From Alphaproteobacteria bacterium (GTDB lineage: Bacteria; Pseudomonadota; Alphaproteobacteria; UBA6615), in the NCBI GenBank assembly GCA_009691025.1, contig SHWB01000002.1, positions 72,300-136,299 of the forward strand: a DNA stretch of 64,000 nt, given 5' to 3'. This document shows positions 13,985 through 58,377 of this stretch, one piece after another. The stretch's first letter is position 1; each line of letters opens with the position of its first letter. The notes under the pieces were generated by a model. It did not search any database and was not told the DNA's origin. It saw nothing but the letters and a program-made list of their open reading frames with translations. The translations under genes were made by a program, and so were the position numbers.

Positions 13985-16589
13985 ATGATGCGCGATGCCA
14001 CGAATCTTGCCCGCGCTGCCGAGGCAGGTGTCGCGCTGGCCGGGGTTGCGTGGTTTGCCGGCTTCGCCATCCTGATTGTTGTCTCGCCCGGCGGGGCCGG
14101 CCTGGCGCCGTCATAGGCCGGGGCGCTGGCCGCCGGGCTGCTGGTGCCGCCCGCGCTGGCCGGGATTCTCGGCTGGTGGCTGCTGACGCGCCGGTGGACG
14201 GATCGCGCGCTGGCCGACCCCGAACGCCATGTCGCGGCGCTGAGCCGGCCGCAGCGCGCCGTCGAGACGGCCCTTGCCACTCTCGGCGACCGCCTTGCGG
14301 TGGGATCGGGCCGGCTCGACGAGGAGGTCGTCAACGCGCACGCGCTGCTCGAAGGGCTGGCCGACCGGCTGGCACAGGAAGCGGAGCGGCTGGCCGGTCT
14401 TGCGGACGAGTCCGTGCGGCGCTCCGCGACCGGCAGCGAGGCTCTGCGCAGCCAGGCCGAGGCGCTGGCTGCAACAGCGTCGCGGATCGCCGGCCGCCTC
14501 GACGAGGTGCGCGCCACGACGGGCTCGCACGCGGCCGCCGCACTGCTCCAGGCCAAGCAGGCGGCAGAGAATGCGCGCCGGCGCCTCGTCGCGGTCGCCG
14601 AATCCTTCGATGCCGTGGGCAAGCGCGCCGCCGCCGCCGCCGAGGGCGCGGTCGCGGCCTTCGCGTTGGCGCGCGAGGCTTTTGCCGGCGAGACCAGAAG
14701 AAACGGCGAGTAGGCGGCGTCGACACGCCGCGAACTGGAGCGCGCGGCCGGCGAATTGGGGGGGTGGCGTCGCCGCATTGAAGGATGCGAGCGCTGCGGC
14801 GGTCGCCGAACTGGCGGCGGCGCGGTGCTGTTTCGATGACGAGGCCGCCGGACTCGGCAAGGACGGCGCGGCTGCTTTCGCCAAGGCGGGGCTGGAGGCC
14901 CTCGAGGCGCTCGAACGGAACCAGCGCGAGACGCGGGTGCGTCTGACGACCGCCGGCAACGACAGTGTCCCGGCATTGCGCGAGGCCGGCTAGCAGGCGG
15001 CGGCGGCACTGGCGCGTGTCGACGAAGGGCTGGGTCGACAGCTCGCCACGCTGACCACCGAGGCGCCGCGCACCGTGCGCGCGGCTACGCCGACTGCACT
15101 CGGCGCCATGCAGAAAGTGCAGGAACAGCTCGGCGACCGGCTGCGCGATCTCGGGGCCGGCGGTGCCAGAGACGTGCGCGAATCCGGCGGCGTAGTGCTC
15201 GGCTCCGTCGACGAGGCGTGCGCGGCGCTGGCGCGGCATGTCGAGTTGCTGCGTGGCGATGCGGCCGGCGCGGTGCGCCTCGCCGCCGACAATGCGACGG
15301 CCGCGATGAGATAGGTCGAGGCCAGCCTGCGCCGCCATCTCGCCGCCATGCGCGCGAGATTTCCGCAGACGGCGCGCGAGGCCGCCTCCATCGCCACCGC
15401 CTCTCTGGGCGAGGCGAGCTCGCAAATGCGCGTGGAGGTCTAGGCGAGCGGCATCGCCGGCGTCGAGGCGGTGCGCAACACCGCCGCCGCCGCGCTGGAG
15501 GCGATGCGCAAGGCCCACGACGAGATCCGCCGCGAAACCGAGCTTGTCAACCTCGCCGTTGCCGGTGCCGACGAGCAGGGCCGCGCCGTCGGCGCCATGC
15601 TCGGCGGCCAGGTGGCGACGATGAAGGCCGCCGCAGGTGCTGTCTCGGGCGAGCTGTCGCAGGTGCGCCAGATGGTGCAGGGCGAGACGCGGGCTATGTT
15701 GGCGGAGAGCCGCGAGGCCAGCGACGCTATCGCCCGCGCCCGCGAGGCGCTGGCTGAGCAGCGTCGCGAACTGGAGGAGGAGCTCGCCGCGGCTCGCGAA
15801 CTGGGTTCGGAGACGGGCCGTGAACTGGGTGCGCAGAACGAGCGCCTCGTCGCCGCCATCGAGGGCGCGGATGCCCGCGGGCACGACCTCGAAGCGACGC
15901 TCGGCGCGCGCTCCGACGCGGTCGCCGGTGTCGCTGGCTCAACCGCCGCGCGCGCGCAGGAAGTGATGGCGACGATCGAAGGGCAGGTCTCGACGATGTC
16001 GGACACCGCCGAACGGCTCGACCGCCGCGTCGGCGACCTGCGCGAAACGCTGCGCGGCCAGTTGGGCGTGCTGATGTCGACGACAGACTATGTCTCCGGC
16101 CGCGTCGACAGTATCTTCGGCTCCTTCCGCGCGCAGCAGCAGGCGCTCCTGGGTGTCGTCGAGGAGGCCGAACGCAAGGCGGGCGAGCTGCGTGTTGCGC
16201 AGCTTTCCGATGCGCGCGGCGTGCTGCTGCACATGGTCAACCGCGTACTCGATTCTCTGGGCTCGCTCGGCACCGACCTCGGCCGCATGCTCGAAGGCGA
16301 TTTGCCGGACCGTGTCTGGCGGCGCTACCTGGAGGGCGACCGCACGGTGGCGCTGCGGCGGCTGGCGCGCGGCCTGCGCGACCGCGACGCCATCGCCCGA
16401 GTGCGCCGCTCCTTCGAGGATGATCCCGAGTTCCGCCACCTCGCCAGCCGCCACCTCGCCGAGTTCGAGCACCTGCTGACCCAGGCCGGCGACACCGACC
16501 CGGAGGACCTAGTCAGTGCTTCCCTGCTCACTGCCGATGTTGGCAAGGCCTATCTGCTGCCCTCGAGGGCGACGGGGCGATTGAGCTGA
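13985..16589 (+). pseudogene. membrane-anchored long coiled-coil protein, interrupted by 5 in-frame TAG and one frame change
   Basis: From ATG 13985: two TM helices (VALAGVAWFAGFAILIV; ILGWWLL), then about 800 Ala/Glu/Arg-rich coiled-coil codons ending DLPDRVWRRYLEGDRTVALRRLARGL..FEHLLTQ. Continuity requires reading through TAG at 14114, 14711, 14991, 15312 and 15441, plus a frame change in the G7 run 14758-14764. Confidence 0.7.
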
Positions 16590-16606
16590 CGGCGCGGCGT
16601 CCCCGT

Positions 16607-16712
16607 CCTTCGACAGGCTCAGGACGAGGACGGCTGGAAAGTGCGACGCGGCCGGCGGCCCCCCCCCCGCGTGCCGGGTACGCCCCCTCGATCATCCTGA
16701 GCCTGTCGAAGG
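16607..16712. repeat. REP-like element: 18-bp perfect inverted repeat enclosing a C10 tract
   Basis: CCTTCGACAGGCTCAGGA at 16607-16624 and its exact reverse complement at 16695-16712. C10 homopolymer at 16659-16668. Confidence 0.7.
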
Positions 16713-16770
16713 ATGAGGATGCCGTCGGCTGGTGGTGGCTCCACGGGGCAGGCGGGACTATCTTTCCCCC

Positions 16771-17646
16771 ATGGCCCAGGCCGCGCGGCGCCTGCCGGAG
16801 AACGCCACCGGCGACTTTTATGTCGACGAGACCTGCATCTATTGCGGCTCCTGCCGCTGGATCGCGCCGGTCTCGTTCGACCTGGCCGGCGAACGCTCCT
16901 ATGCGAAGGCGCAACCGCGCGGCGAGGCCGAGGCGCGGCGGGCGGAGAGGGCGCTGGTCGCCTGCCCGACGGCATCGATCGGCACCGCGGGCAAGCACAA
17001 CCTCGCCGCCGCGCGCGCCGCCTTTCCTGCTCGCATGGACGGCGAGGTCTATCACTGCGGCTGGCACGCGGAAGCGAGCTTCGGCGCCGCGTCGTGTCTG
17101 GTGCGGAGGCCCGACGGCAACATCCTTGTCGACTCGCCGCGCTGTGCTGGAAGGCTGGTGCGTGCGCTCGAAGACATGGGCGGGGTGCGCTGGATGTTCC
17201 TGTCCCACCGCGACGACGTCGCCGACCATGCACGCTTCGCCGCGCATTTCGGCGCCACCCGCATCCTGCATGCCGACGACGTGAACCACGGCACGCGCGC
17301 CGTCGAATGTCAGGTCGAGGGACGCGAGCCGGCGGTGCTCGCGCCGGGTGCGACGATGATCCCGGTACCGGGCCATACGCGCGGCTCGATGGCCATGCTG
17401 GTCGACGATACCTTACTGTTCACCGGAGACCATCTCTCCTGGTCGCCGGAGGACAGTGCCCTCGTCGCCTGGCGCGGCGTCTGCTGGTACGACTGGCGCG
17501 AGCAGACGCGCTCGATGGCACGGCTTGCGGCGCGGCGCTTCGAATGGGTACTTCCCGGCCATGGCACGCCGGGACGTTTGCCGGCCGCGGCCATGGCTCG
17601 GGCGATGGAGAGTCGGTTGGGACGCATGCGGGCGGAGGGCGTCTGA
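16771..17646 (+). CDS. MBL-fold metallo-hydrolase with N-terminal ferredoxin-like Cys cluster
   Basis: Start at ATG 16771 ([11 protein letters not shown]). [12 protein letters not shown] Cys motif, then [12 protein letters not shown] and [11 protein letters not shown]-type motifs. Its stop overlaps the meaB start (TGATG). Confidence 0.65.
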
Positions 17647-18653: not shown

Positions 18654-18743
18654 GGCTGCCCGCCCGGCTTGACGGCGTTCCCCCATTCGCCTACACACCG
18701 CCGCTCGGGCCACTGGCCCCAGGGATCGTCAAGAGAGGCACCG

Positions 18744-19028
18744 ATGGCCCGCCGCTGCGCCGTCTCCGGCAAGGGCGTGATGTCTGGCAACAACGTCAGT
18801 CACGCCAACAACAAGACGCGCCGCCGTTTCCTGCCCAATCTGCAGGTGACGAGCCTTTACAGCGAGGCGCTGGGCCGCGCCGTGCAATTGCGCCTGTCGA
18901 CCAACGGCGTGCGCACCGTCGAGCATCGCGGCGGCCTCGACGCCTATCTGCGCGGCGCCACGGCTGCCAAGCTGTCGCTGGAGCTGAAGCGCCTGAAGAA
19001 GCAGGTCGAGGCCAAGGCATCGGCCTGA
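18744..19028 (+). CDS. rpmB: 50S ribosomal protein L28
   Basis: [34 protein letters not shown]..., 94 aa. Confidence 0.9.
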
Positions 19029-19127
19029 CCGGCGAATTTGGGTCAGCCAAGCGCTGGCCCACCTCAGCCGGCTCGCTGTCGCTCGCCACCCCACCCCACG
19101 GGCGGAGAGGGTTTTCGTTTGCGACCC

Positions 19128-21159: not shown

Positions 21160-22313
21160 CTACCCCATCGCATGTCGCGCGACGAAACCATCGTCGATGG
21201 TGAGGCCGAGGCCGGGGCGGTCGGGCACGTCGATCAGCCCGTCCGTCACGGGGAAACCCTCGATCGCCAGGTCGTGCAGCATTGGGTTGGCGCCGAGCGA
21301 ATATTCTAGGATGAAGCCGGCGGGCGACGCCGCGGCCACCGCGAGGCCGGCGGCGAAGGCCGGCGCGCCGCCCCAAAGATGCGGCGCCTGACGAAGATTG
21401 TAGGCGCTGGCCAATGCCGCGATGCGCATCGCCTCGGTGATGCCGCCGCAAATGGCGAGGCTGGGCTGCAGGATGTCGACCGCGCGCAGTTCGCACAGTT
21501 CGCGGAAACCATGGCGGGTGAATTCGCTCTCGCCGGCGGCGATGGCCGTGTCGGCGGCGGCGCGCACCTCGGCCATGCCTCGCTTATCGTCGGCCGAGAC
21601 CGGCTCCTCGAACCACATAGGCGCGCTGTCCGCGGCGAGGGCGGCGAAGCGCTTGGCCTCGGCAACGGTCCAGGTGCCGTGCGCGTCGCAGGCGATGCCG
21701 ATATCGGGGCCGAGCGCCGCGCGGGCGGCGGCGAGGCGGCGGGCGAGCCGTCCATCTCGCCGACGCGCATCTTCACCACACCGAAGCCGCCGCGGTCGAC
21801 ATAGCCCTGCAACTGCTCGCCGATGGTCTCGGCCGGCGCCCGGCCGCCCGAGGCATAGGCCGGCAGGCGCGATGCCCGGCGGCCGCCGAGCAGGCGCCAC
21901 ACCGGATCGTCCAGCGCCTTGCCCTTGATGTCCCACATCGCCATGTCGATGGCGCCGATGGCGGAGACATGCGCGCCGCGGCGGTTGAGCACGGGAAAAC
22001 CGTGGACGCGCGACAGTGCGTAATGCGCGCGGGTGCCGCTGTAGAGCATCTCCCAGAGGCGCGCCGGATCGCGCGTATCCTCGCCTATCAGCAGCGGCGA
22101 GAACTCCTCATTCACTATCACCGTCAGCCCGGCATTGTTGGCGGCGCTGGCGACGGCGGACTTGCCCTCGCCCCAGACGGTGAAGCCGGCATCGGTGTCG
22201 ATGCGCACGATGGTGGCATCGAAGGAGTCGAACGTGCCGTAGTCGCTGGTGTGCCGGCGCTCGGCCGGGATCGGCACATGCACCCAGAAGCCGCGGACTG
22301 CGGTGATCTTCAC
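21160..22313 (-). pseudogene. mandelate racemase/muconate lactonizing enzyme (enolase superfamily), 1 frame change
   Basis: GTG 22313: MKITAVRGFWVHVPIP...AIDMAMWDIKGKAL...GVVKMRVGE, then the other frame DGRLARRLAAARAALGPDIGIACDAHGTW...MWFEEPV...AAGESE. Junction near 21750. Confidence 0.8.
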
Positions 22314-23308
22314 TAGGCGAGGCCCAGGCGCGCGCGCCGCGTGACATGCGCCTCGCGGCTGGCGGAATTGACGAAGAATTGCGGCCAGCCGCCGGCGATG
22401 ACGGTGGCAACGGCCTCGGCAGAGATGCGCCCGGTCTCCTCGAAGGCCTGCACGGTGATGCCGGCCACATGCGGCGAGAAGCGCACAGAATCGAAACGCC
22501 GGTAGGGGTGGTCGGCGGCGAGGGGCTGCACGTAGAGCACGTCGAGCGCGGCACCGCCGACGCGCCCCGCCTCCAGAGCCGCTACCAGATCGTCCTCGAC
22601 GATGACCGGACCGCGCGCGGCGTTGACGACGACCACGCCAGGCTTCGCCAGAGCGAGGCGGCGCGCGTTGACGAGGCCGCGCGTCTCATCCGACAGCGGG
22701 CAGGTCAGCGCGATATAGTTGCTCTCGGCGAACAGTCGGTCGAGATCGGCCGCCTCTATGCCGTCGGTCAGCGGGCGGCTGCGCTGCGTGCCGAGCACGC
22801 GCATGCCGAAGGCGCGGCCGAGTGCCGCGACGCGTCTGCCGATATCGCCGACGCCGACGATGCCGAGCGTCTGGCCGTCGAGCCCTCGCCGGTCCTGCGC
22901 GAAAGCGCGCACCGGCTGCCATTATCCGGCGCGCACGCGGCGGTCTAGCGTGTCGAGGCGACGGGCGAAGGCGAGCATCTGCGCCAGCACGTACTCGGCG
23001 ACGGTGCCGGCGTTCACGCCGGGGGCATTGGCCACAACTATGCCGTACTCCGTGGCGCTGTCGACGGGTATGAGGTCGACGCCGGCGCCCTGGCGCGCGA
23101 CGTCGGGCATGTGCGGCGTGTGCTCGGACAGGTCGGGCGGCAATTGCGCGCCCACGATCAGGCCGGCGGCGTCGGCGGCCTCGCGGCGCAGCGTGTCGAA
23201 ATCGGTGCTGGTCGCCACCACCGCGTCGAGGTCGGCGGCGTCGAGCACGCGCGTGGCTTCGGCGCCCTAAGGCGGGGTCAGCAGCACCTTGGGACGGCTG
23301 CCGGACAT
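22313..23308 (-). pseudogene. D-isomer-specific 2-hydroxyacid dehydrogenase with in-frame TAG and TAA
   Basis: ATG at 23308: MSGSRPKVLLTPP*GAEATRVLDAADLD...VVANAPGVNAGTVAEY..RRVRAG*WQP...LGIVGVGDIGRRVA (NAD fold). TAG at 23267-23269, TAA at 22922-22924, no frame change. Confidence 0.8.
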
Positions 23309-25410: not shown

Positions 25411-26613
25411 ATGAACGACAAGGTTCCGGGCCTGCTCGACGGCATCCGCGTCGTCGAGATGAGCCACATCATGGCCGCACCGACCGGCGGCATGATGCTC
25501 GCCGACATGGGGGCCGACGTGATCAAGGTCGAGCGCCTGCCTCAGGGCGACGACATCCGACGCTCGGCGCCGATGGTCGATGGCGAGTCAGCGCCCTTCA
25601 CGATGATGAACCGCAACAAGCGCGGCGTGGCACTCGACATGCGCCAGGCGGGCGGGCGATACGCGCTGCGCCGGCTGGTGCTCGGCGGCGATGTGTTCAT
25701 CGAGAATTATCGCAAGGGCGCGATGGAACATTACGGCCTCGGTGAGGCCGAGATGCGAGCCGCCAATCCGAAGCTGGTCTACTGCTCGGTGTCCGGCTTC
25801 GGCCAGACCGGACCATATGCCGGGCGCGGTGGCTTCGACCTCATCACCCAGGGCATGAGCGGCCTGATGTCAATCACCGGCGAGGGCGAGGGGCGCCCGC
25901 CGGTGAAGGTCGGAGCGCCGGTGACGGACATCACCGCCGGCATCCTCGCCGCGCTAGGCATATGCGGCGCGTTGGTGCGGCGCGGCGTGACGGGCAGGGG
26001 GCAATATCTCGACACCTCGTTGCTCGAGGCCGGCATCACCCATACCTACTGGCAGACGGCAATCTACCGCGCGTCGGGCGAGGTCACCCGCGCGCTCGGC
26101 TCGGCGCATCCGCTGATGGCGCCCTACCAGGCTTTTCCCACCAAGGACGGCTGGATCAATCTCGGTGCCGCCAACCAAAGCACCTGGGAGAAATTCGTCG
26201 TTGCGCTGGGCGCGCCCGAGTTGGGTGCCGACCCTCGCTTCAACGCCAATGCCGGGCGCTTGGCCAATCGCGGGGCGCTGACCTACGAACTGACCCGCCG
26301 TTTCGCCACCGCCACTACCGCTGCATGGCTCGACCGGCTCGAGGCCGCCGGCGTGCCGGCCGGCCCGGTGTACGACGTCGCCCAGATGGCGGCCGACCCG
26401 CAAGTGCAGGCGCGTGGCATGATCGCCGAGGTGTCGACGGCCATGGGCACGCCGGTCAGCGTCATCGGCCATGCGGTAAAATACTCGGACAACCCGGCCA
26501 CCATCCGGCGCGGCGCCCCGCGCCTCGGCGAGCATACGCGCGAGGTTCTGGAGGAATACGGCTTCTCCGGTGCCGAGATCGACGCGCTGGTCGCATCGGG
26601 AGCGGCGGCCTGA
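25411..26613 (+). CDS. family III CoA-transferase (CaiB/BaiF type)
   Basis: 400 aa; GIRVVEMSHIMAAPTGGMMLADMGADVIKVE..., SGFGQTGPY, ITQGMSGLM. Confidence 0.85.
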   Translation: MNDKVPGLLDGIRVVEMSHIMAAPTGGMMLADMGADVIKVERLPQGDDIRRSAPMVDGESAPFTMMNRNKRGVALDMRQAGGRYALRRLVLGGDVFIENYRKGAMEHYGLGEAEMRAANPKLVYCSVSGFGQTGPYAGRGGFDLITQGMSGLMSITGEGEGRPPVKVGAPVTDITAGILAALGICGALVRRGVTGRGQYLDTSLLEAGITHTYWQTAIYRASGEVTRALGSAHPLMAPYQAFPTKDGWINLGAANQSTWEKFVVALGAPELGADPRFNANAGRLANRGALTYELTRRFATATTAAWLDRLEAAGVPAGPVYDVAQMAADPQVQARGMIAEVSTAMGTPVSVIGHAVKYSDNPATIRRGAPRLGEHTREVLEEYGFSGAEIDALVASGAAA

Positions 26614-26629
26614 TGATCGGCGCGCTACG

Positions 26630-28327
26630 GTGATACGCTTCCGCCGGCTCGTCGACGCTGCGACGGAACGCGACCGCTCACAGCTCGATAGTGTACGCGC
26701 GATGTTAGCGACGGCCTTTACGGCCGAGCGGCGGGCTATCGACCGGCTACTCGCCGGACTGGGAGAGCGCGAGGGCGCCTACGAGACGGTGGTGCTGATC
26801 GCCGAGAACGAGCGCGGCAGCGTGCTCGGATACTCGGTGACTATGTATTTCCGCGCCCCGCGCTTCGGCCACCTCGTCTATTTTGCCAGCGACCAGCAGC
26901 GACTGGCATCGGCGGGGCGCTGTACGAGGCGCTGCGCGAGTACCTGGTCCGCAAGGGCGCGGCTGGATTGTTTCTCGATGCCGGCCCCGACGACCCGGTC
27001 AAGCTCGACGATCCGTCGAGCTTGCCGCTCAACCGGCAGCGCATGGTGTTCTACGAACGCTACGGGGCGCGGCCGATCGAGGGCACGCTCTACGACGTTA
27101 TTGGCAACCCCGCCAATGACGTCGTCCGCGTTACTCTCCTGTTCGACCCGCTCTATCGCCATACCCCGCTGCGACGTGCCTAGGTGCGTGCCTTTCTGCG
27201 TCGCATGTATCTCGCCCAGTACGGGCAGGGTACGGCCGACCCCTATGTGCGCGAAATGGTCTCGTAGTTCCGCGACGATCCGGTTCGCATCCGGCCGCCA
27301 CGGCCGCGCGCTCCGAGGCCGGCGCCGACGCGGAGCTGGCTGCGGCCGCTGAAGCTCGTCGTTGCCGAGAACTACCGCATCCACCATCTTCGCGAGAAGG
27401 GCTATGTTGAGCGTCCCGTACGCATCGATGCCGTCCTGCGCGGCCTCGTCGACGTGCCGCACGAACGCGTTCCGACTCGCTGCTTCAAGGACTACATACT
27501 GCGCGAAATCCACGACCCCGACCTCGCCTACTATCTGCAGGCGATGTTGGAGAATCTGGCGCCGAGCGCGTTGCTTTATCCTGAGGTCTTTCCGGTGCGC
27601 CGGCCGGACCGGCGGCCGCTCGAGCTGGAGGCACGCGCCGGTTATTTATGCATCGACACCTTCACGCCATTGACGCACAACGTCTGGCGCGCCGCTCGCG
27701 CCGCCGTGGGCACGGCGCTGACCGGCGCGGAGTTGGTGCTGGAGGGCAACCGCCCCGTCTACGCGCTGACACGGCCGCCCGGACATTATGCCGAGCGCGG
27801 TGTCTATGGCGGCTTCTGTTACCTCAACAACGCCGCCGCCGCGGCGCACCGCCTGTCGTGCCATGGCCGCGTCAGCGTGCTCGACATCGACTACCACCAC
27901 GGCAACGGCACGCAGGATATCTTCTGGCACAGAGGCGATGTGCAGACACTGTCGATCCATGGCTCGCCCAGCCTCGCCTACCCGCATTTTCCGGCGAGGC
28001 GACGAGCGCGGTGAGATTGACGGGCGCGGCGCCAATTGCAATTTTCCCCTCCGCCGCGGCGTCGACGACACGCGCTATCTCGAAGTCCTTGAGGAGGCGC
28101 TGGGGCTGGTGCGACGCTTCCGCCCGGCCTTACTCGTCGTTGCGCTGGGCTTCGATACCATGCGCGGCGATCCGACCGGCTCGTTCGTCGTCACTACCCG
28201 CGGCCTGCGGGCCATCGGCGTGCGCTTGGGGCGGATGGGGTTGCCGACTCTGCTGGTCCAGTAGGGCGGCTACTCGCCGCGCAATCTGCGCGTCGGTGCC
28301 TAGGCGCAGTTTGAGGGGCTGGGATAG
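26630..28327 (+). pseudogene. GNAT acetyltransferase - histone deacetylase-family (HDAC/AcuC-like) fusion, 4 in-frame TAG plus at least 2 frame changes
   Basis: GTG 26630 VIRFRRL...; GNAT core TGIGGALYEALREYL; HDAC part RPPGHYAERG..GGFCYLNNAA, LDIDYHHGNGTQDIF, NCNFPL, LLVQ*GGY. TAG at 27181, 27265, 28262 and 28301. Frame changes near 26885-26895 and 27987-28005. The expected PGHHA is PGHYA. Confidence 0.75.
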
Positions 28328-28349
28328 ACCTGGTATTGAAGTGGTTCGT

Positions 28350-31283: not shown

Positions 31284-32038
31284 TCACCCGGTCCAGCGAC
31301 CGCCATTGATATCGAGGGCCGCGCCGGTCATGAAGCCAGCCGCCGGCCGCGCCAGATACCATACGCCGTCGGCGATCTCCTCGGCTCTACCGAGACGGCC
31401 CACCGGGATCGACTGGGCGATGGCATCCATGCGGTGGGCATGCAGCACCTCGATGCGCGGCGTCATGATGGTGCCCGGCGTCACCGCGTTGACGGTGATG
31501 CCGTCCTTCGCCACTTCGACGGCGACGCGGCTGGTGAGGCCGATGACGCCGGTATTGGCCGCCGAGGAGTCCACCGAGGCCAGTTCTATGCCCTACCGTC
31601 CGGCGAGCGAGGCGATGTTGACGATACGCCCGTATTTGCTCGCCGGCATCGCCGGCATCGCCGACTTCATGACCGAGAAGATTGAGGTCAGGTTCCACTC
31701 GATCGCCGCCCGCCATTCGTCGAGTCTGGTGTTCGCCATGTGCTGCGTCTCGTGGAAGCCACCGGGGCAGTTCACGAGGATATCGAGGCGGCCCCATCTG
31801 TCGGTTACGGCCTTCACTGCGGCGTCCATGTCCGCCGAACTGCCGCTTCGCCGGCGATGGTCTCGGCGCCGGCGGCGGTCAGCCTGCCGGCGGCACGCTT
31901 GCCGCCGGCGGCATCGCGGTCGATCACCGCCACCTTCGCGCCCTCGGCGGCGAGGAGTTCGGCGCAGGCTAGGCCGATGCCATCGGCCCCGGCGGCGATG
32001 ACGGCGACATGCCCCTTGATCGAGGTTTTGTGTGCCAC
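31284..32038 (-). pseudogene. SDR paralogue of 32187..32945, with in-frame TAG, a frame change and lost catalytic Tyr/Lys
   Basis: MAHKTSIKGHVAVIAAGADGIGLA...; frame change near 31845; RIVNIASLAGR*GIELASVDSSAANTGVIGL (TAG 31593-31595), where the intact copy has SISYSAAKAGVIGL. Confidence 0.8.
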
Positions 32039-32186: not shown

Positions 32187-32945
32187 TCAGCCGGTCCAGC
32201 GGCCGCCATTGATGTCGATGACCGCGCCGGTGACGAAGGCCGCCGCCGGGCGGCAGAGATAGGCGACACAATCGGCGATCTCGTCGGCGTCGCCGAGGCG
32301 GCCGACCGGCGTTGCCTTCGCCATCGCCACGCCGCGCTCGGCCGGCATGGCGTCGACGCGCGGGGAATGCGTGGTACCGGGGGCGAGGGCGTTGCAGGTG
32401 ATGCCGTCGGCCGCCACCTCCACCGCCACCCGCCGCGACAGGCCAATCACGCCGGCCTTGGCCGCCGAGTAGGAAATCGAGGATTGCAGCCCGGCCGAGC
32501 GCCCGGCGAGCGAGGCGATGTTGACGATGCGGCCGTATTTGCGCGCCCGCATCGCCGGCACGACGGCCTTGATGACGACGAAGATCGAGGTGAGGTTCCA
32601 GTTGATCGACGCCCGCCACTCCTCGACGCTGGTCTCGAGGCCCTGCGCCTGGCGGAAGCCGCCCGGGCAATTGGCGAGGATGTCGAGGCGGCCCCATTTG
32701 CCGGTGACGGTGGCGACGGCCTTCTCCACGTCGGCCAGATCGGTGCATTCGCCGCCGAGCGCCATGGCCTCGCCGCCGGCCCTGGCGATCGCCGCGGCGG
32801 CGCGTTCGGCGCCCGCCACGTCGCGGTCGAGGATGGCGACGCGCGCGCCGTCGGCAGCGAAGCGATCGGCGCAGGCAAGGCCGATGCCCGCCGCGCCGGC
32901 GGCGATGAAGGCGACATGCCCCTTGATCGAGGTATCTATGGTCAC
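32187..32945 (-). CDS. SDR-family oxidoreductase
   Basis: GTG start at 32945 preceded by GGGAG. TIDTSIKGHVAFIAAGAAGIGLA, catalytic YSAAKAGV, C-terminal DINGGRWTG. 252 aa. Confidence 0.8.
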   Translation of the reverse strand: MTIDTSIKGHVAFIAAGAAGIGLACADRFAADGARVAILDRDVAGAERAAAAIARAGGEAMALGGECTDLADVEKAVATVTGKWGRLDILANCPGGFRQAQGLETSVEEWRASINWNLTSIFVVIKAVVPAMRARKYGRIVNIASLAGRSAGLQSSISYSAAKAGVIGLSRRVAVEVAADGITCNALAPGTTHSPRVDAMPAERGVAMAKATPVGRLGDADEIADCVAYLCRPAAAFVTGAVIDINGGRWTG

Positions 32946-33036
32946 GCTGACGTTCTCCCTGGAGGGACTTTGCCGGGAGTGTAGGCGTCGGCGGCGGAGA
33001 TGCAAAATCCCGCCTCTTTTTACGGGGGGGGGATTT

Positions 33037-35587: not shown

Positions 35588-35899
35588 ATGACCACGACCT
35601 AAAAGCGTGTCGAAGACGACGTGAAGGACGAGGTCTCCGCTCTCAAGTCGAGCGTCGAGCAACTCACCGCCGATCTCGGCAAGCGGGCCCGACATGCGGC
35701 CCGCAGCGCCGGTTCCCGTGCCGCCGACGGCCTCGACGGGCTGCGCCATCGCGTCTAGGCGGTCGCCGAGGAGGGCGTCGATCAGGCCCGACGCGGTGTG
35801 GACGCGGCGAACCGGACGGTCGCGGAACACCCGCTGCAGAGCGTCGCCATCGCTTTCGGGCTCGAGCTCGTCGCATCGCTCATGCTGTTCCGACGCTGA
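35588..35899 (+). pseudogene. DUF883 (ElaB/YqjD-like) membrane-anchored stress protein with in-frame TAA and TAG
   Basis: MTTT*KRVEDDVKDEVSALKSSVEQLTADLGKRA...GLRHRV*AVAEEGVDQARRGVDAANRTVAEHPLQSVAIAFGLELVASLMLFRR. TAA 35600-35602, TAG 35756-35758. Confidence 0.7.
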
Positions 35900-36702: not shown

Positions 36703-37333
36703 CGTTAGCGCGTTCAGCCACGCGGCAGTTTTGCGCCTGTTCGGCGTCAGGAAGCGAGTCTTCTGGCCGCGCTAGCAGCAAGTACAGCTTCGCCGTCTCC
36801 TCCAGCTCCTCGGGGGCGTAAACGGCATCGCGCAACGATGAGCCGGCGACAACCGGGCCGTGATTGGCCAGCAGCACGGCATGGTGCCTGCCGGCCAGCT
36901 CGCGCACGGCGCGCGCGAGGTCGCCCGGCTGGTAGTAGGGCACCAGAGGCAGGGTGCCCGATCTTCATGACGTAGTAGGCGGTGATTGGGGCAGCACGTT
37001 GGCCGGATCGATTTCGGCGAGGCAGCTCACCGCCACCGAATGCGTCGAATGCAGATGGATGACGGCGCCGCTGCCCGGCCGCATCGCGTACATCGCCTGA
37101 TGCAGGAAGGTCTCCTTGGTTGGCTTGTCGCCGCCCAGCAGTTCGCCCTGCGGTCCGAGGAGCGACAGGCGCGCCGGGTCGAGGTCGCCGAAGGACGAGC
37201 CGGTCGGTGTCATCAGCCAGCCGTCGTCCATCCGCACGCTGATATTGCCCGACGAGCCCACCGTCATCCCGCGGTAGAACATCGACTTCGCCGGCTTGGC
37301 GATGTCGTCGCGCATCTTCGTCTCGGTCGTCAT
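36700..37333 (-). pseudogene. otnC: class II aldolase/adducin-family decarboxylase (OtnC-like), multiple frame changes
   Basis: ATG 37333 MTTETKMRDDIAK..MFYRGMTVGSSGNISVR...AVIHLHSTHSVAVSCL..DPANVLP | ITAYYVMKIG | TLPLVPYYQPGDLARAV...LLANHGPVVAG..EELEETAKLYLLLA. Junctions near 36988 and 36955, and the C-terminus is scrambled near 36770. The 3' limit is approximate. Confidence 0.65.
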
Positions 37334-38586
37334 GGCAGCATCGCGAAGGCTTTGACGAAGAAATCCTCGGCGCCGAAATTGCCCTATTTGAGGGCCTGCG
37401 CCAGGGCGGGCTCGCCCAGTGCCTCGCACCACGGCACGCCGGGGTCGATCTCGGGGCCGATGCGCAGCGCCTTCACGCCCAGCGCCTCGACTACGGCACC
37501 CGAGGTCTCGCCGCCGGCGACGATCAGGCGGCGCACGCCGGAGCCTATGAGGCCGCGCGCGATCTTCGCCTGCACGGCTTCCAACGACGCGCCGATTTCC
37601 ATGCGCCCGTGGATGTCTTGCGCCGCGCGCACCGCCTCGGGCTCGTCGCTGGAAAAGAACAACGGCCGCGCCTTGCCCGTCGCCCGGGCCAGCGCCTCGC
37701 CGGCCACGTCCCGGCCCGAGGCGACGGCGGACGGATAGAGGCGGAAGGCCGGGTATTTGTCCTTCACATGGGCGATATGGCCGAGCGTGGCGCGCGAGCA
37801 ACTGCCGGCGATCACCGCCTCGCCGCCCTTCGCCGTCGGCGTGACGGCGGCGGTGCCGGAGGCCAGCAGGCCGGCGGCGCGGAAATTGTCTGGCAGGCCG
37901 ATGGCGGCGCCCTAGCCGCCCGTCACCAGCGAGAGGTCGCGGCAGGAATGGCCGATGCCGAACAGATTTGCATCGGAGAGGGCGTCTACTACGGCGATGC
38001 GGCGAGCCTCGCCTGCCAGCTTCGTGCAGGCGGCGCGAATGGCGCTCGCGCCCGCCATCACCGCGGGGGCCGGCACGAGCCAGACCTTGAGCTTCGTTTG
38101 TCGCCCCAGCACGCGCACCAGACCCGGGTTGGTCATGGGCGTCAGCGGGTGATTGCGCATCGGCGAGTCCGACAGCAACACGCCGTTCCCGAACAGATGG
38201 CCCTGGTAGATCGTCCGGCCCGTCGTCGGGAAGCCTTGGCAGGCGATGGTGAAGCCGGCGCCGAGCCGGGCCAGCATCGCCTAGGCGACCGGGCCGATAT
38301 TGCCATCGTCTGTCGAATCGAAGGTTGAGCAGTACTTGAAGAAGAATTGCCGCGCGCCGTGGCCCTTCATCCAGCCGAGCGCCGCGAGCGATTGCTCCAC
38401 CGCTTCCTGTGGCGCGATGGTGCGCGATTTCAACGCGACGACGACCGCCGCCGTGTTGGGCAGCTTCGTCGCGGCGTCGGGCACACCTATCAGCTGCACC
38501 GTTGACATGCCCTGCTTAACCATGGTGTTGGCGAGATCGGTTGAGCCCGTGAAATCGTCGCCGACGCAGCCGAGCAGCAGGGGCAT
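37330..38586 (-). pseudogene. otnK: DUF1537 four-carbon acid-sugar kinase (OtnK-like) with three in-frame TAG and no frame change
   Basis: ATG 38586 MPLLLGCVGDDFTGSTDLANTMV...GNIGPVA*AML...VTGG*GAAIGL...ALK*GNFGAEDFF..AMLP, 419 codons in one frame. TAG at 38281, 37912 and 37384. Its TGA overlaps the otnC ATG. Confidence 0.8.
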
Positions 38587-41184: not shown

Positions 41185-41215
41185 GCCCGCGCCGGCCGCA
41201 CCAAGGAGAGAACCG

Positions 41216-41545
41216 ATGGATATGCTATTCAAGACCGATCTCTAGGCCATCCGGGCTCGTGCGCTCATGCGGATGCAGGATTGCGCCGTCACCGGCGCCT
41301 ATCAGGCCGACCGGGAGCGTGATCGAAGTGCTGCATCAGGTCCTAGCGACCGAGCTGGTCTGCAATTTGTGGTACCGCAATCACTACTTCATGGCGAGCG
41401 GCATCATGTCCCAGCCGGTCGCCGACGAGTTCCTCGAACACGCCAGCGAGGAGCAGCAGCATGCCGACCTGGTCGCCAAGCGGATCACCCAGCTCGGCGG
41501 CAATCCCGATTTCAGCCTGGACGGCATGTGCCGGCGCTCGCACTC
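41216..41545 (+). pseudogene. ferritin-like/bacterioferritin-related protein, 5' fragment with TAG and a frame change, 3' end deleted
   Basis: AAGGAGAG SD then ATG 41216: MDMLFKTDL*AIRARALMRMQDCAVTGAYQADRE | VIEVLHQVLATELVCNLWYRNHYFMASGI.SQPVADEFLEHASEEQQHADLVAKRITQLGGNPDFS. TAG 41243-41245, junction near 41318. The homology stops near 41540. Confidence 0.65.
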
Positions 41546-42905
41546 ACCCGCTGGCCAATATCGGCGCCTACCTGTCGGCCATCCGCAGCCTGCTCGCGAC
41601 TTTCTCCAACGTGCAGACGCTGGTCGGCGTCTACTATTTTCCGACGGCGCACGCGACCGTGCTGTGCCTGCACTCCAACACCAGCCCGAGGGCGCCATAT
41701 CGCGGCGCCGGGCGCCCGGAGGCGACCTACGTCATCGAGCGCATGATCGACGAGGCCGCCGTCGAGCTGGACCTCGATCAGACCGAGTTGCGCCGGCGCA
41801 ACATGATCGCGCCGGAACGCCTACCGTTGAAGACCCCGCTCGGCGGGCATTACGATTACGGCGGGTTCGCCGCCAATCTCGACGAGCCGCTGAAGATGGC
41901 CGACTATGACGGCTTCCCGGCTCGCCGCGCGGCGTCCCAGGCGGCGGGCAAGTTGCGCGGTATCGGCCTCGCCCATCCCATCGAATCGGCCGGCGCGCCG
42001 AGCATGTAATTCGCCGAGATACGCTTCTCCACCGGAGGCACGGCGACACTGATGATGGGTACCAAGGCGCAGGACCAGGGCCACGCTACGATCTTCAAGC
42101 AGCTCCTTTCCGAGAAGCTGGGCATAGATCCCGCCGATGCGCGCTACATCGACGGCAACACCGACGTGGTCAATGTTGGCATGGGCACGATGGGATCGCG
42201 CTCGACGGTGATCGGCGGAACGGCCATCACGGTCGCCGACGACAAGGTGATCGTCAAGGCGAGGAAGCTCACCGCGCACATGATGGAGGCGGGCGAGGCC
42301 GACATCGAATTCTCCGACGGCACTTTAACCGGCGCCGGCACCGACCGCGCGCTGCCGCTGAAGGAGGTCGTGCGCACCTCCTTCCTGCCCGAACGTCTGC
42401 CGAGTGGCATGGAGCCCGGCCTTTACGAGACCGTGTCATTCTCGCCCGACGCCGCCACCTGTCCCAATTGTTGCCATGCCTGCGAGGTGGAGATCGACCC
42501 GGGGACGGGCGTGACCTCGATCCTCGGCTGGTGGGTGGTCGACGATGTCGGCGTGGTTATCAACCCGACGATGGTGAAAGGACAGATCCATGGCGGCATC
42601 GCGCAGGGCGTCGGCCAGATCCTCGGCTAGGAGGTGGTCTACGACCCCGACAGATGGCAGATCTTGTCCGGCTCGTTCATGGACTACGCCATGCCGCGCG
42701 CGGGGGACTTTCCCTATATCCACATCGTCAGCCGCCCGGTGCCGACGAAGCGCAACCCGCTGGGCGTCAAAGGCGCGGGCGAGGCCGGCACGGTCGGGGC
42801 GAGCTACCGGCGCTGATGAACGCCATCCTCGACGCGCTGCGTCCGCTCGGTGTGGAGCACCTCGACATGCCGGCGACGCCAGAGCGCGTCTGGCAGGCGA
42901 TCTAG
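41545..42905 (+). pseudogene. CoxL/xanthine dehydrogenase-type molybdopterin-binding subunit, 3' ~450 codons only, with TAA, TAG and a frame change
   Basis: Begins abruptly at ..ANIGAYLS..LVGVYYFPTAHA..NTSPRAPYRGAGRPEATYVIERMIDEAA..RRRNMI; ...APSM*FAEIRF (TAA 42007); ..GVGQILG*EVVYD (TAG 42628); GEAGTVG | [12 protein letters not shown] (junction near 42797). Confidence 0.75.
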
Positions 42906-45020: not shown

Positions 45021-46082
45021 CCAGCCGGCCATCCAGTCGGCCGATTGCGGCCGGTACAGATGCGGCAGGTTGTTGACGACGTGATTGCCGCCGGGAACGA
45101 TGTTCAGCGTCACCGGGCCATTGGCCGCAGCGGCCAGGCGCCGCTGTTCGTCCGGGGGCGTCACGCGGTCGAGTTCGCCGCCGACGATGTAAAGCGGACA
45201 GGCGATGCGTTCTGCGACACCGGCGAGATTGATCCGGCGCGCGACCTCGTAGCCCGCCTCGGGCGTGGTGCAGTGGGCGCGCGCCATAAACACTTTTTTG
45301 GTGCCCGATTCGTGCCAGTGACCGGCATAGTAGAACGGGCCGCAGATGGCGACGCAGGCCCTGATGCGGGCCTCGAACGCGGCCGCGCGCGGTGCGTAAT
45401 AACCGCCTAAGCTGACGCCCCACAGGCCAATGCGTGCCGCGTCTAGATCGGTGCGCGTCTCTACCCAATCGATCACCGCCGCGACGGCGACCTCATAGTC
45501 TGGCCGGATCGGCCGGTCGTACTCGCCCTTGCCATGGCCGGGGCTGTCGAAGGCAATCGTGGCTACACCCCGGGCCAGGAAAGGCGCCTCGTTGGTCGAC
45601 ATCTCCTCATTCGCCGAATCCATGCCCATGCACATGACGAGGACGGGCGGACGCACCACACCCCGCGGCTTGCGCAGGATGCTGTACAGATATGCGCCGT
45701 CGTAAGTGATGGCGACGCGCTCGCTAGGCGGGTCGAGACAGGGCGAAGCGAGGTGGCGGCATTCAATGGCCTTCGCGTGCACGGCACGCAGGCGCGCCCT
45801 GTCCTAGACGAAGACTAATTTGGCGAAATGGTAGACGACGCCCGCCGTCTGCAGGTGCTCGCCGGCGCTGATGGTGTGCCAGGCGGCAAGTGCCTCGTGC
45901 CCCAGCGCCTCTTGCCGCGCCGCTAGTTCGGCCCAGACGTCGATCCAGCCGTCCCAGGTCCCGATGCGTCCGCTCGCCTCATGCCAGTCGGCCAGAGGCA
46001 CCCCGTTGATCACGAAGCGCGGCGCCCAGCGCTCGGTGACGAGAGCGACTCTTTCGTCCCTTGCCATCGGCTTCCCCGCCAT
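45000..46082 (-). pseudogene. alpha/beta hydrolase with N-terminal helical domain, split by one in-frame TAG
   Basis: ...VVYHFAKLVFV*DRARLRAVHAKAIECRHLASPCLDPPSERVAI...VLVMCMGMDSANEE...GLWGVSLGGYYA. TAG 45804-45806, single frame. Confidence 0.7.
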
Positions 46083-54409: not shown

Positions 54410-54418
54410 GCCGGGAGG

Positions 54419-55579: not shown

Positions 55580-55739
55580 ACCGGTCGCTTCCGCTCGTTG
55601 ATTCGCCGGCTTGCCCCCGCCGGCGGGCGCATCCTAGCCCCGCCGCCCCCGGCCGTCGCGGCGAAAGGACGCGCTCCCGGCTTGTCCCGCGCCCCCTTTC
55701 CGCCGTTTCCATGGGCGGCGTGCGACGCGGGAGGACCAC

Positions 55740-56573
55740 ATGGTGGGACATTTGTTGGACGACCAGGCGGAGCGCTACCGGCGCGACGGCTTTCTGTTTC
55801 CCGTGCGGGTGCTGACGCGCGCCGAGGCCGAGGGCTACAAGGTGAAGCTCGAAGCCTATGAGCGGTCCGCCGGCGGGCCGATCAGCGGCAACCGCCGCCA
55901 CAAGGTGCATCTGCTGTTCACCTGGGCGGCCGAGCTGGTGCGCAACTCGGCGATCCTCGATGCCGTCGAATCCGTGCTGGGTCCCGACCTCATGGTCTAG
56001 GGCACGGACTTCTTCATCAAGGAGCCGCGCGATCCTGGCTTCGTCTCGTGGCACCAGGACTCGACCTACTGGGGCCTCGACCCAGCGGACATCGTGACGG
56101 CGTGGGTCGCCTTCAGCGACGCGCCGGTCGAGAGAGGCGCGATGAAGTTCATGCCCGGCTCGCACCTCATCGACCAGCTGCCGCATGTCGATACCTTACA
56201 CGAGCACAACCTCCTGACTCGCGGGCAGGAGATCGCTGTCGAGGTTGACGAGTCGAAGGCCGTCGACGTGACGCTGAACGCCGAGGAAATGTCGCTGCAC
56301 CATGTCCGCCTGGTGCACGGCTCGAAGCCCAACACCACGGCCAACCGCCGCATCGGCTTCGCCATCCGCTACATGCCGACCTATGTGCGCCCGGTGAAGA
56401 TCAAGGACGGCTCCATGCTGGTGCGCGGCACCGACCGCCACGGGCATTTCGTGCCGGAAGTGTCGCCGATGGCCGATCTCGACGATGCCGCCATCGCCGC
56501 CCACACCAATTCTATCCAGCGGCAGATCGCAGCGCTCTACGAGGGGACCGACCGCACCGAGATGCGGCCCTAG
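55740..56573 (+). pseudogene. phytanoyl-CoA dioxygenase (PhyH) family Fe(II)/2OG oxygenase split by one in-frame TAG
   Basis: MVGHLLDDQAERYRRDGFLFPVRVL...VLGPDLMV*GTDFFIKEPRD.GFVSWHQDSTYWGL...AWVAFSDA..ERGAMKF.PGSH...HHVRLVHGSKPN. TAG 55998-56000, same frame on both sides. Confidence 0.8.
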
Positions 56574-56709
56574 GCGAAGGCGGGTATCCTTGATACTCGT
56601 TTGTGCCTGCCAGCAAATGGACTAGCGTAACCGGAACGCTCGGCGGCCATATTCCCCGGCACCGCCGCTGTATCCTCCGCCGGGCGCGCACGAGGGTGGC
56701 TCCGTGATC

Positions 56710-57071
56710 GACCCCCACCTGCCGCCAGTTGGGACTAGGTCAAGTTCACGCATAAAACTGCTCAGACTGCCGCCCAGTTTCAGTTCCCTGCTCTGGGTCT
56801 TGACCGCCTCGGTGGTCACCCAAGCCAGCAGCAACCTTGGTACAGACCCGTAGGGCAAGCCCATGGTGCTTGGGGAGAGGATGGTCAGGCTGTAGTTGAC
56901 GTTCTTTCTGGTGAACTCATTGCCTACAACTTTGCGGTGGGGAAGGGTGGCTTGCACCATAGCCCATGCCATGAACCCCAAGGCATCAGCGTCCTGCGCC
57001 TTCTCATCCTCGACGGCAAGCGCCCTGTTGATCAGCAGGTCTACGTTCTTGTTGTTTAAATTTGATGCCAT
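56710..57071 (-). pseudogene. repA: plasmid RepA (RepA_C family) replication initiator, N-terminal ~120 codons only
   Basis: ATG 57071 MASNLNNKNVDLLINRALAVEDEK...LGFMAWAMVQATLPHRK...YSLTILSPSTMGLPYGSVPRLLLAWVTTEAVKTQSRELKLGGSLSSFMRELDLVPTGGRWGSIT. Family similarity ends where the sequence turns GC-rich near 56710. Confidence 0.6.
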
Positions 57072-57104
57072 CTTGCGCTTTTGGCTATGTGGGTTTTGAC
57101 TTAT

Positions 57105-57448
57105 TGTCACATAGTATTATAAAAACGATATTTGCATACTTATGTGACTATGCACACATATATTTTCATAGATCTACACAAGCCGTTGGGTGTACTGAAA
57201 CTACTCTGCCAAATACCTTGATAGTTGGCGCAGGCATGGTCTGTGACCACCTTTAAAAGCATTGCGTGACACCACCGCATTGCCCTCAGGGGTCTTTGCC
57301 CCTGTGGACTTAGCCCAAGGCTTCCATTGCCTGATGGCTTGGGACTTCTTGGCTTTGCGCTCAGGTGTCCAAGTCATTGGTGTTCCAACTTGGCGGCTTC
57401 AGCGCAAACAACGGTGCGGTAACTGTGACCTAAGTCACATATTGTGAC
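57105..57448. repeat. iteron/operator-like field of TGTGAC/GTCACA hexamers
   Basis: GTCACA at 57106 and 57434; TGTGAC at 57143, 57242, 57424 and 57443; GTGACA at 57266. Perfect palindrome TGTGACCTAAGTCACA at 57424-57439. The 8-mer GTCACATA occurs 3 times (57106-57113, rc of 57141-57148, 57434-57441). Confidence 0.6.
57201..57377 (-). CDS. 58-aa basic hypothetical protein of the plasmid remnant
   Basis: Below the ORF-track size cut-off. MTWTPERKAKKSQAIRQWKPWAKSTGAKTPEGNAVVSRNAFKGGHRPCLRQLSRYLAE. ATGA overlap with the upstream 69-aa ORF. Overlies part of the repeat field. Confidence 0.4.
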   Translation of the reverse strand: MTWTPERKAKKSQAIRQWKPWAKSTGAKTPEGNAVVSRNAFKGGHRPCLRQLSRYLAE

Positions 57449-57583
57449 CATAAGCGCACCACTTGGTGTGAAGCTAAAGCCAGATTGGGCGTGGGCTTCT
57501 TTGATGGTTAGTTGTATTGCAATACCTGACAAGGCAAGAGCAATCACTGTTAAAATGAACTTTGTGTACAAATCGGTTTTCAA
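57374..57583 (-). CDS. 69-aa signal-peptide/TM protein of the plasmid remnant
   Basis: MKTDLYTKFILTVIALALSGIAIQLTIKEAHAQ... followed by a short Cys-containing soluble part. AT-rich codon usage like the repA fragment. Confidence 0.4.
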   Translation of the reverse strand: MKTDLYTKFILTVIALALSGIAIQLTIKEAHAQSGFSFTPSGALMVTICDLGHSYRTVVCAEAAKLEHQ

Positions 57584-57675
57584 GGGGCATCTCCTTGGTT
57601 AAACAGCCACTTTATCCAATAGTATATTTGGCGCAAGTAGGGAAATTTTATCCGATGATTGCATAGATATGCAAG

Positions 57676-58377
57676 ATGACGCCGCACCTTTCGGTCATCT
57701 GCAAGGGCTGCTGGCAGCAGTTGCACTTGACGATCCCCCTGCGCGGCCGGGCATCGGTGCCATTCCGCCTCGTTGGTGTCCGGACCAGCCGCATGAATCC
57801 CAACACCTGCACGGTCTGCGAGATGATGTTCACGCGGGGCATGAAGGCCACCAAGGTCACCATCGACGCGAGCGTCATGTTCGTCGACCTGCGCTGCTAT
57901 ACCGGCCTGACGCAGTCCCTGTCGCAGGAATCTATGGCGACGCTGCTGGGTACCTTCTATGACGAATTCCCCAGTGCGATCTGGGCGCATGACGGGCTGC
58001 TGAATAAGACCATCGGCGATGCCGTCATGGCGGTGTTCAATTTTCCCATCCGCCATGTCGACCATGCCCACAACGCCGTGCTGGCGGCGCGGGAAATACA
58101 GCAGCGCTGTGTCGACCGCGGGGCGGCGGTGCTGCGTAGCCACGGACTGTCGCGCGCCGCGCTCGGCATCGGCATCGACTACGGCACGGCCAGTTTCGGC
58201 GAGTTCGGCCACTCCCAGCGCGACCTGACGGCCATCGGCACCGTCGTCAACATGGCGGCGCGGGCGCAGGGTGCCTCTGCGGCCGGAGAGATTCTCGTCA
58301 CCCGTGCCGTCTACGACCGCACGCAGCCCGACCTAGCGGCGAGCCGGTCCGGCAGATACAGCCTCAATGGCTTCTAG
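57676..58377 (+). CDS. class III adenylate/guanylate cyclase with N-terminal double CxxC zinc-ribbon; premature TAG 9 codons before the family-typical end
   Basis: VICKGCW...NTCTVCEMMF, then cyclase core VTIDASVMFVDLRCYTGLTQ..., LNKTIGDAVMAVFN, GIGIDYG.ASFGEFG, TAIGTVVNMAARAQ. Reads ..YSLNGF*APVELYAA-TGA (TAG 58375-58377, TGA 58402-58404). Confidence 0.75.
   Translation: MTPHLSVICKGCWQQLHLTIPLRGRASVPFRLVGVRTSRMNPNTCTVCEMMFTRGMKATKVTIDASVMFVDLRCYTGLTQSLSQESMATLLGTFYDEFPSAIWAHDGLLNKTIGDAVMAVFNFPIRHVDHAHNAVLAAREIQQRCVDRGAAVLRSHGLSRAALGIGIDYGTASFGEFGHSQRDLTAIGTVVNMAARAQGASAAGEILVTRAVYDRTQPDLAASRSGRYSLNGF

Follow-up and report, generated by a model that had tools for sequence, protein, structure and literature searches.

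A 64,000-nucleotide stretch of contig SHWB01000002.1 (assembly GCA_009691025.1) from an alphaproteobacterium, referred to here as the window, carries a large number of genes that are interrupted by in-frame stop codons. An earlier note on this DNA listed 20 TAG and five TAA codons of this kind but no TGA, and read the imbalance as the trace of a methylation system or of a defect in DNA repair. We consider it likely that these stops instead reflect ordinary pseudogene decay, with the make-up of the stops set mainly by codon usage. According to this explanation, accessory genes of a Lake Baikal alphaproteobacterium would be undergoing inactivation, and the stops would arise through ordinary single-base substitutions in genes that have been freed from selection. 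The G+C content of the window is 68%, at which GAG (Glu) and TCG (Ser) would be the commonest one-step precursors of a stop, both of them giving TAG, and the precursors of TGA (TGG, TGC, GGA, and CGA) would be few. TAG could then be expected to dominate under any mutation spectrum, and a rate of G:C>T:A changes at least as high as that of G:C>A:T changes would push the ancestral codons further toward Glu and Ser.

This explanation is supported by a count of the available precursors. For nine broken genes, the intact orthologues, with 3886 codons in all, served as proxies for the ancestral state, and all routes by which a single base change leads to a stop were counted. Routes to TAG start chiefly from GAG (195), CAG (95), TCG (67), TAC (64), AAG (60), and TGG (48), with GAG and TCG together providing 262 of 554; routes to TAA start from TAC (64) and GAA (44), and those to TGA, from TGG (48), TGC (26), and GGA (13), amount to 92 of all 776. 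Five mutation models were then applied: one with equal weights, one with a typical transition-rich spectrum, two in which transversions occur at the same rate as transitions or at three times their rate, and one with G:C>T:A only. Across the five, the expected shares are 0.64 to 0.71 for TAG, 0.13 to 0.27 for TAA, and 0.10 to 0.17 for TGA. For 25 lesions, this corresponds to a TAG:TAA:TGA ratio of about 17:4:3, against 20:5:0 observed (chi-square p 0.06 to 0.18). The nonsense spectrum thus follows the abundance of precursor codons, and the judgment that it is extreme and would not be given by unbiased decay was wrong. As GAG and TCG are abundant stop precursors and the precursors of TGA are rare, a TAG-rich and TGA-poor spectrum is the default at high G+C. 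The dominance of TAG is the default for the codon usage found here, and TGA is, at most, mildly under-represented.

Ancestral codons and the state of the broken genes

All 20 TAG and all five TAA triplets are present where they had been placed. A codon-usage model trained on the long open frames of the window was used for Viterbi segmentation in all six frames, with stops given a score of zero, and all 25 listed stops fall within the local coding frame. Pfam domains span the stops in seven families (2-Hacid_dh, Hist_deacetyl, adh_short, OtnK [SBD_N/NBD_C], NAD_binding_11, PhyH, and Guanylate_cyc). At the 15 sites covered by the syntenic stretches L001 or L162 of a related genome, described below, the stop is a codon-for-codon substitution relative to an intact orthologue, with no indel, and alignment to intact orthologues or homologues supports 22 of the 25 stops. 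A 950-residue Ala-rich protein with five TAGs has no Pfam match, yet it is intact in L162. Its family comprises 1253 homologues by exhaustive representative search; a word-indexed search with the same protein returned two weak matches only, owing to its low complexity.

No in-frame TGA lesion was found by the Viterbi list, by a two-sided coding-score scan, or in the orthologue alignments, which bears out the earlier note on this point. One candidate, TGA 36965 in the class II aldolase gene (OtnC), was ruled out as an in-frame lesion, as it lies between two compensating frameshifts across which the true frame reads ITAYYVMKIG, as in PDB 6vop/6voq. Both of these frameshifts adjoin short runs of C or G. 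Three premature TAGs close to natural gene ends had been omitted from the list (28325, 42903, and, on the minus strand, 22313).

The closest available genome is the metagenome-assembled genome GCA_050246875.1 ("Alphaproteobacteria bacterium"), of which two stretches were used. L162 aligns to 12.5 to 29.2 kb of the window at 80 to 88% nucleotide identity with gene order kept, and L001 aligns to 41.5 to 46.1 kb at 84%. Ancestral codons were additionally read from L082, a 1.2-kb metagenome contig whose OtnI region is 91% identical to the window, from 30 metagenome OtnK homologues together with three solved structures, from a neighboring paralogue, and from PDB structures. Polarization of the lesions, which the earlier note had proposed, recovered the ancestral codon at 22 of the 25 listed stops and left 35600, 35756, and 41243 unpolarized. 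The ancestors are Glu at 13 sites, Ser at five or six, and Gln, Trp, and Tyr at one each. Of the changes, 19 to 20 of the 22 polarized lesions are GAG/GAA to TAG/TAA, TCG to TAG, or Tyr to TAA changes. Glu or Ser had been anticipated from family conservation at five sites (one each in HDAC, CoxL, and FAH and two in OtnK), correctly in every case. The TAAs at 22922 and 44790, which descend from GAG, probably passed through TAG.

Premature stops are only one part of the damage. About 20 genes between positions 13985 and 58413 carry premature stops, frameshifts, or truncations, and roughly one gene in three in the window is broken, whereas the L001 and L162 orthologues of the broken genes are all intact and syntenic. 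Frameshifts relative to these orthologues include a +1 G at 14758, a pair of single-base deletions near 27990, and a +2 at 42796, and the window copies also have deletions of 7 and 13 bases. CoxL has lost its N terminus and abuts a truncated ferritin-like gene. In OtnK, 27 of 169 conserved positions are changed, compared with 5 of 92 in its intact neighbor OtnI, and the operon partners of OtnK carry frameshifts and a TAA. Replacement-to-silent ratios range from 0.27 to 0.66 in broken genes and from 0.13 to 0.47 in intact ones; as they are only slightly raised, the inactivations appear to be young relative to the split from the relative.

The ferritin-like gene (41209 to 41540), which has one TAG and one frameshift, stops abruptly at about 41529, where the N-terminally truncated CoxL begins. 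The junction suggests that a deletion joined the remnants of two genes.

Accumulation of pseudogenes is a feature of reductive or relaxed-selection genome evolution, as in Mycobacterium leprae and Sodalis. The window is similar in that accessory genes are broken by nonsense, frameshifts, and deletions, with close relatives intact, and in that changes relative to the relative are biased toward A+T. It differs in that decay is recent, in that the scope is 64 kb, and in that the source is a free-water sample and not a known host-restricted organism. Exact protein matches to the window are found in the ENA metagenome assembly ERZ1305449 and in the Logan assembly of run SRR8561390, a Lake Baikal winter sample from a depth of 1250 m (PMC7678222). 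Recent, dense decay is unusual for an open-water bacterium from 1250 m, and the lifestyle may be host-associated or bottlenecked in some other way.

Premature stops and frameshifts in the window (coordinates of the window; minus-strand stops are numbered by the lowest base of CTA/TTA)
Lesion	Position	Strand	Gene	Ancestral state	Remarks
TAG	14114..14116	+	950-aa Ala-rich membrane/coiled-coil gene	CAG (Gln), L162 orthologue	
TAG	14711..14713	+	Ala-rich gene	GAG (Glu), L162	
Frameshift, +1 G	14758	+	Ala-rich gene		In G7-8 run
TAG	14991..14993	+	Ala-rich gene	GAA (Glu) in L162 orthologue	Next base C
TAG	15312..15314	+	Ala-rich gene	GAG (Glu), L162	
TAG	15441..15443	+	Ala-rich gene	GAG (Glu), L162	
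TAG	22313..22315	-	D-2-hydroxyacid dehydrogenase gene	GCA in orthologue	One codon short of natural TGA; next base T; not in earlier list
TAA	22922..22924	-	D-2-hydroxyacid dehydrogenase gene	GAG (Glu) in L162	Hence two steps
TAG	23267..23269	-	D-2-hydroxyacid dehydrogenase gene	TCC (Ser) in L162 orthologue	
TAG	27181..27183	+	GNAT-deacetylase fusion gene	GAG (Glu), L162	
TAG	27265..27267	+	GNAT-deacetylase gene	TCG (Ser); Ser in 38/40 homologues, TCG in L162	Next base T
TAG	28262..28264	+	GNAT-deacetylase gene, deacetylase domain EGGY motif	GAG (Glu); Glu in 39/40 homologues, GAG in L162	
TAG	28301..28303	+	GNAT-deacetylase gene	GAG (Glu), L162	
TAG	28325..28327	+	GNAT-deacetylase gene	TCG (Ser)	Four codons short of natural TGA; next base A; not in earlier list
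TAG	31593..31595	-	Decayed short-chain dehydrogenase gene	TCG (Ser) in neighboring paralogue 32187-33005	
TAA	35600..35602	+	DUF883-like gene	Unpolarized	Codon 5; may precede true start codon
TAG	35756..35758	+	DUF883-like gene	Unpolarized	Mid-gene
Compensating frameshift pair (-1, +1)	36961..37000	-	OtnC aldolase gene		32 nt apart; encloses out-of-frame TGA 36965
TAG	37384..37386	-	OtnK, motif LKSGNFG	Ser in 30/30 homologues; PDB 5dmh, 3dqq, 1yzy concur	
TAG	37912..37914	-	OtnK, motif TGGSG	Ser in 30/30 homologues	
TAG	38281..38283	-	OtnK	Glu; homologues 22 Glu, 8 Asp (n=30)	
TAA	39460..39462	-	3-Hydroxyisobutyrate-dehydrogenase-like gene	Tyr; TAT in L082, Tyr in PDB 3g0o	
TAG	41243..41245	+	Frameshifted, truncated ferritin-like gene	Unpolarized	N-terminal part
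TAA	42007..42009	+	CoxL fragment	GAA (Glu), L001	
TAG	42628..42630	+	CoxL fragment	GAG (Glu), L001	
TAG	42903..42905	+	CoxL	CAG within CCAGG	Five codons short of relative's CoxL end; next base G; not in earlier list
TAA	44790..44792	+	Fumarylacetoacetate-hydrolase-family gene	GAG (Glu) in L001 orthologue	
TAG	45804..45806	-	Alpha/beta-hydrolase gene	GAG (Glu), L001	
TAG	55998..56000	+	PhyH-family dioxygenase gene	Trp (TGG); Trp in PDB 6zyk, 2fct	Transition
TAG	58375..58377	+	Class III cyclase gene	Ser (PDB 3r5g) or Asp (PDB 1wc0)	Nine codons before end

Balance of mutations in the broken genes

The ancestral codons bear directly on the reading of the stops as products of G:C>T:A transversion. 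That reading named the base change correctly for about 85% of the stops, and it requires G:C>T:A to occur at a rate no lower than that of G:C>A:T, but the mutator history drawn from it is not borne out. Under such a history, the lineage would be in, or would have passed through, an 8-oxoguanine (GO)-repair mutator state of the MutY/MutM type, and most of the stops would be its G:C>T:A footprint. Consistent with this, the stops are mostly products of that change, with Glu, Ser, and Tyr ancestors, and the ancestors imply a rate ratio of G:C>T:A to G:C>A:T of about 3 (95% interval, 0.9 to 16). Among replacement differences, the two classes stand at 109:74 in broken genes and 33:42 in intact genes (Fisher p 0.027), making G:C>T:A relatively commoner in dead genes, and at the conserved positions of OtnK they stand at 9:2.

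The overall spectrum argues against a mutator. G:C>T:A makes up 109 of 394 replacement differences in the pseudogenes (28%), compared with 91% in a Salmonella strain without ung, vsr, mug, mutM, and mutY (PMC4702332), and transitions and G:C>C:G changes are still abundant here. At all aligned G sites of the pseudogenes, G>T (3.6%) is rarer than G>A (6.2%) and G>C (7.9%); the corresponding values in intact genes are 2.4%, 5.1%, and 6.8%. The LtnD pseudogene has no G:C>T:A change against five G:C>A:T changes, and in the intact ACAD gene, for which changes were assigned to the window branch with ten outgroups, there are 13 G:C>A:T, 8 G:C>T:A, and 9 G:C>C:G changes. Moreover, codon abundance alone explains most of the bias toward Glu and Ser. 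Wild-type Pseudomonas aeruginosa (67% G+C) shows 66% transitions, and in the lineage studied here, G:C>T:A has a larger share than in a textbook wild type, although one that is very far from that of a GO-repair null. As the share of G:C>T:A is so far below that of the null, a failure of MutY or MutM cannot be inferred, and the signature that had been claimed for it is not shown. The window itself contains none of mutY, mutM, and mutT. We therefore regard a mutator state as unlikely. The supporting data point, weakly, to a rate of G:C>T:A in the dead genes of this lineage that equals or exceeds that of G:C>A:T.

The base after TAG and other explanations

A second claim of the earlier note was that TAG is almost always followed by G. 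As counts, 18 of 20 TAGs with G at the next position (+4) and 11 of 20 within CTAGG are both correct, but the effect is weaker in the full census of lesions (20 of 28) and in the subset checked against orthologues (11 of 18). For the 20 listed TAGs, the route-weighted expectation is 0.486 (p 1.3e-4); for the nine genes with a complete, unbiased orthologue census, p is 0.15. G is in any case a frequent base here, occupying 43% of first codon positions in the window and following 45% of GAG and 33% of TCG codons, and in the orthologues of the pseudogenes, it follows 105 of 195 GAG codons (54%). The TAAs had been set aside in the original count, and four of the five have no G at +4, nor do two of the three near-terminal TAGs that had been missed.

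A mutational origin of the effect could be examined in the aligned pseudogenes. With any next base, G>T has struck GAG at 10 of 222 sense sites (195 of them in-frame codons) and at 10 of 187 antisense sites; for in-frame GAG, first-base G>T is found in 8 of 105 codons followed by G and in 2 of 90 followed by another base. In general, G>T differences relative to the relatives show no enrichment for a downstream G. In a tabulation by trinucleotide context, as the earlier note had suggested, no context stands out (C[G]A 4.6% and C[G]C 4.5%). A hot spot at GAGG/TCGG or CGAG was accordingly rejected, as was templated or quasi-palindrome mutagenesis, there being no nearby direct or inverted copies. 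Since GAG sites are hit alike on both strands, with neither a context nor a template repeat, the effect is not mutational. The residual G bias is most likely sampling noise on a background of 45 to 54%, noticed after the fact, and the remaining lack of TGA may be explained in the same way; there is a small probability that a real context effect lies behind the G bias.

A-ending two-fold purine codons are rarer before G throughout the window, with G following 29% of GAA against 45% of GAG, 23% of AAA against 46% of AAG, and 21% of CAA against 43% of CAG. This avoidance reflects the influence of context either on transitions at third positions or on the choice of codon. G>A differences relative to the relatives reach their minimum in N[G]G and their maximum in N[G]T contexts.

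Several results weigh against decay governed mainly by codon usage. The complete absence of TGA from 25 to 28 lesions is still somewhat low, with a probability of 0.009 to 0.083 for 25 lesions. G at +4 in 20 of all 28 nonsense lesions exceeds the expected 46% (p 0.006), and it follows nine of the ten lesions for which no close orthologue is available. The spectrum is also not quite ordinary, as a typical, transition-dominated ratio of G:C>T:A to G:C>A:T of 0.4 is rejected (p 1e-4) and a ratio of 1.0 is borderline (p 0.04). Finally, the GNAT-deacetylase gene (26758 to 28330) is interrupted by five stops and by two frameshift events, but at 42/157, its replacement-to-silent ratio resembles those of intact genes. 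Compared with missense changes, disruptive lesions seem over-represented in this one gene. A rough nonsense count for the nine genes gave about 18 observed against 7 to 11 expected relative to missense, by hand arithmetic that is too dependent on the assumed functional-gene baseline to rely on.

The absence of TGA and the G that follows TAG would both be accounted for if amber codons were partly read through, by a suppressor tRNA or a weak RF1, such that TAG is tolerated above TGA and TAA, especially before a purine. Bossi and, separately, Miller and Albertini, both in 1983, reportedly found that a purine after an amber codon favors suppression, and Poole and colleagues are said to have shown in 1995 that the base after a stop codon affects termination. 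The apparent preference for G directly after the in-frame TAGs is of this kind. It is seen in 18 of the 20 listed codons, while G follows only 29% of TAG triplets in any frame of the window and 33% of natural TAG terminators in 53 related high-G+C loci, where C is the commonest next base (44%). Both Glu-derived and Ser-derived TAGs show the bias, although different bases were mutated, and the TAAs for the most part do not.

The genes concerned, however, show no sign of function. Those whose only stops are TAGs are dead by other measures, as in OtnK with its many altered conserved positions and its damaged pathway partners, and TAGs are also found in frameshifted or truncated genes. TAG is in normal use as a terminator, both in the window and in the relative, where it ends intact genes at their natural C termini, and no internal TAG is present in sdhABCD, mcm, meaB, typA, or ACAD. 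None of the listed TAGs is followed by A, although purines in general are said to favor suppression, and the G bias is not significant in the unbiased, orthologue-checked subset. Scans of the 64-kb window for tRNA genes and Rfam families found no tRNA gene and no Rfam match. We hold read-through of this kind to be quite improbable, and very improbable the more specific form in which leaky amber decoding, through a suppressor tRNA or an impaired RF1, makes TAG, above all TAG-G, mild enough to accumulate while TGA and TAA nonsense is purged. Were it true, the bacterium would have been caught early in stop-codon reassignment.

It is conceivable that the G>T changes are not biological at all but stem from oxidative damage during library preparation or from assembly errors in a low-coverage consensus. 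G>T is reportedly the signature of oxidative library damage, described by Costello and colleagues in 2013, and all the lesion evidence may trace to one sample, as the matching Logan contig comes from SRR8561390. Logan contig L081 from that run is 100% identical to the window over 1026 bases, including TAG 55998, and in the gene calls of the ENA assembly, PhyH is split in the same way and the cyclase has 194 residues, which is the length of a frame running from its start codon to TAG 58375. Because this TAG recurs in a separate Logan assembly and the ENA gene calls match the splits, the lesions are not assembler artifacts. The identical lesions are present in two or three different assemblies, and a 64-kb contig implies good coverage. 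In addition, they are accompanied by indels, by the 7- and 13-base deletions, by truncations, and by many missense changes at conserved sites, and they are limited to particular genes with clean neighbors. An artifact is thus extremely improbable. Miscalls at methylation motifs in long reads were considered and are unlikely, as the Lake Baikal sample was presumably sequenced with short reads and the Logan assembly of the run matches the window exactly.

Almost no credence can be given to the other reading offered in the earlier note, in which the stops would have arisen by C>T deamination of 5-methylcytosine within CCAGG, the target of a Dcm-like methylase. Coulondre and Miller are said to have described amber hot spots in lacI in 1978 that arise by such deamination at Dcm CCWGG sites. 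The product CTAGG at 11 of the 20 TAGs is the same, and the unlisted TAG 42903 does descend from CCAGG, but the ancestors differ: the nine CTAGG sites that could be polarized derive from CGAGG (six, Glu), CTCGG (one or two, Ser), and CTGGG (one, Trp), and none derives from CCAGG or any CAG. The only listed TAG with a CAG ancestor, 14114, lies outside CCWGG. Over the aligned 30 kb, C>T at inner CCWGG cytosines (3 of 83) is not raised above that at all G:C sites (877 of 15274, 5.7%; Fisher p 0.63), and the deamination reading is refuted for this window.

Neighboring features and significance

The window contains the housekeeping genes sdhCDAB, methylmalonyl-CoA mutase, meaB, and typA amid many accessory metabolic genes. 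Within the succinate dehydrogenase operon, a DUF4258/MqsA-antitoxin-like gene pair lies between sdhA and sdhB (5012 to 5536; Pfam marks, ENA gene calls). A PhdYeFM/PIN toxin-antitoxin pair between the CoA-transferase and deacetylase genes of L162 (5747 to 6375) is missing from the window at 26613 to 26757. Positions 56563 to 57783 form a 1.2-kb region without coding signal in any frame and with a G+C content below that of its surroundings, which may be a fully eroded gene. In L001 (1 to 21164), TAG is the commonest natural terminator, with about eight TAGs against five TGAs, which is unusual at 70% G+C.

Had the claim of an extreme spectrum held, the nonsense spectrum of a single contig would have diagnosed a repair defect or a methylation system in an uncultured bacterium. 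The finding is largely an ordinary consequence of codon usage in decaying genes. As a TAG-rich, TGA-poor set of nonsense codons is the default in a high-G+C genome, nonsense spectra need to be judged against counts of precursor codons before a mutator history is inferred from them. Mildly useful observations are the level of G:C>T:A change in the dead genes of this lineage, a moderate excess of G after the stops, and the recent, dense inactivation of genes in a bacterium from deep open water.

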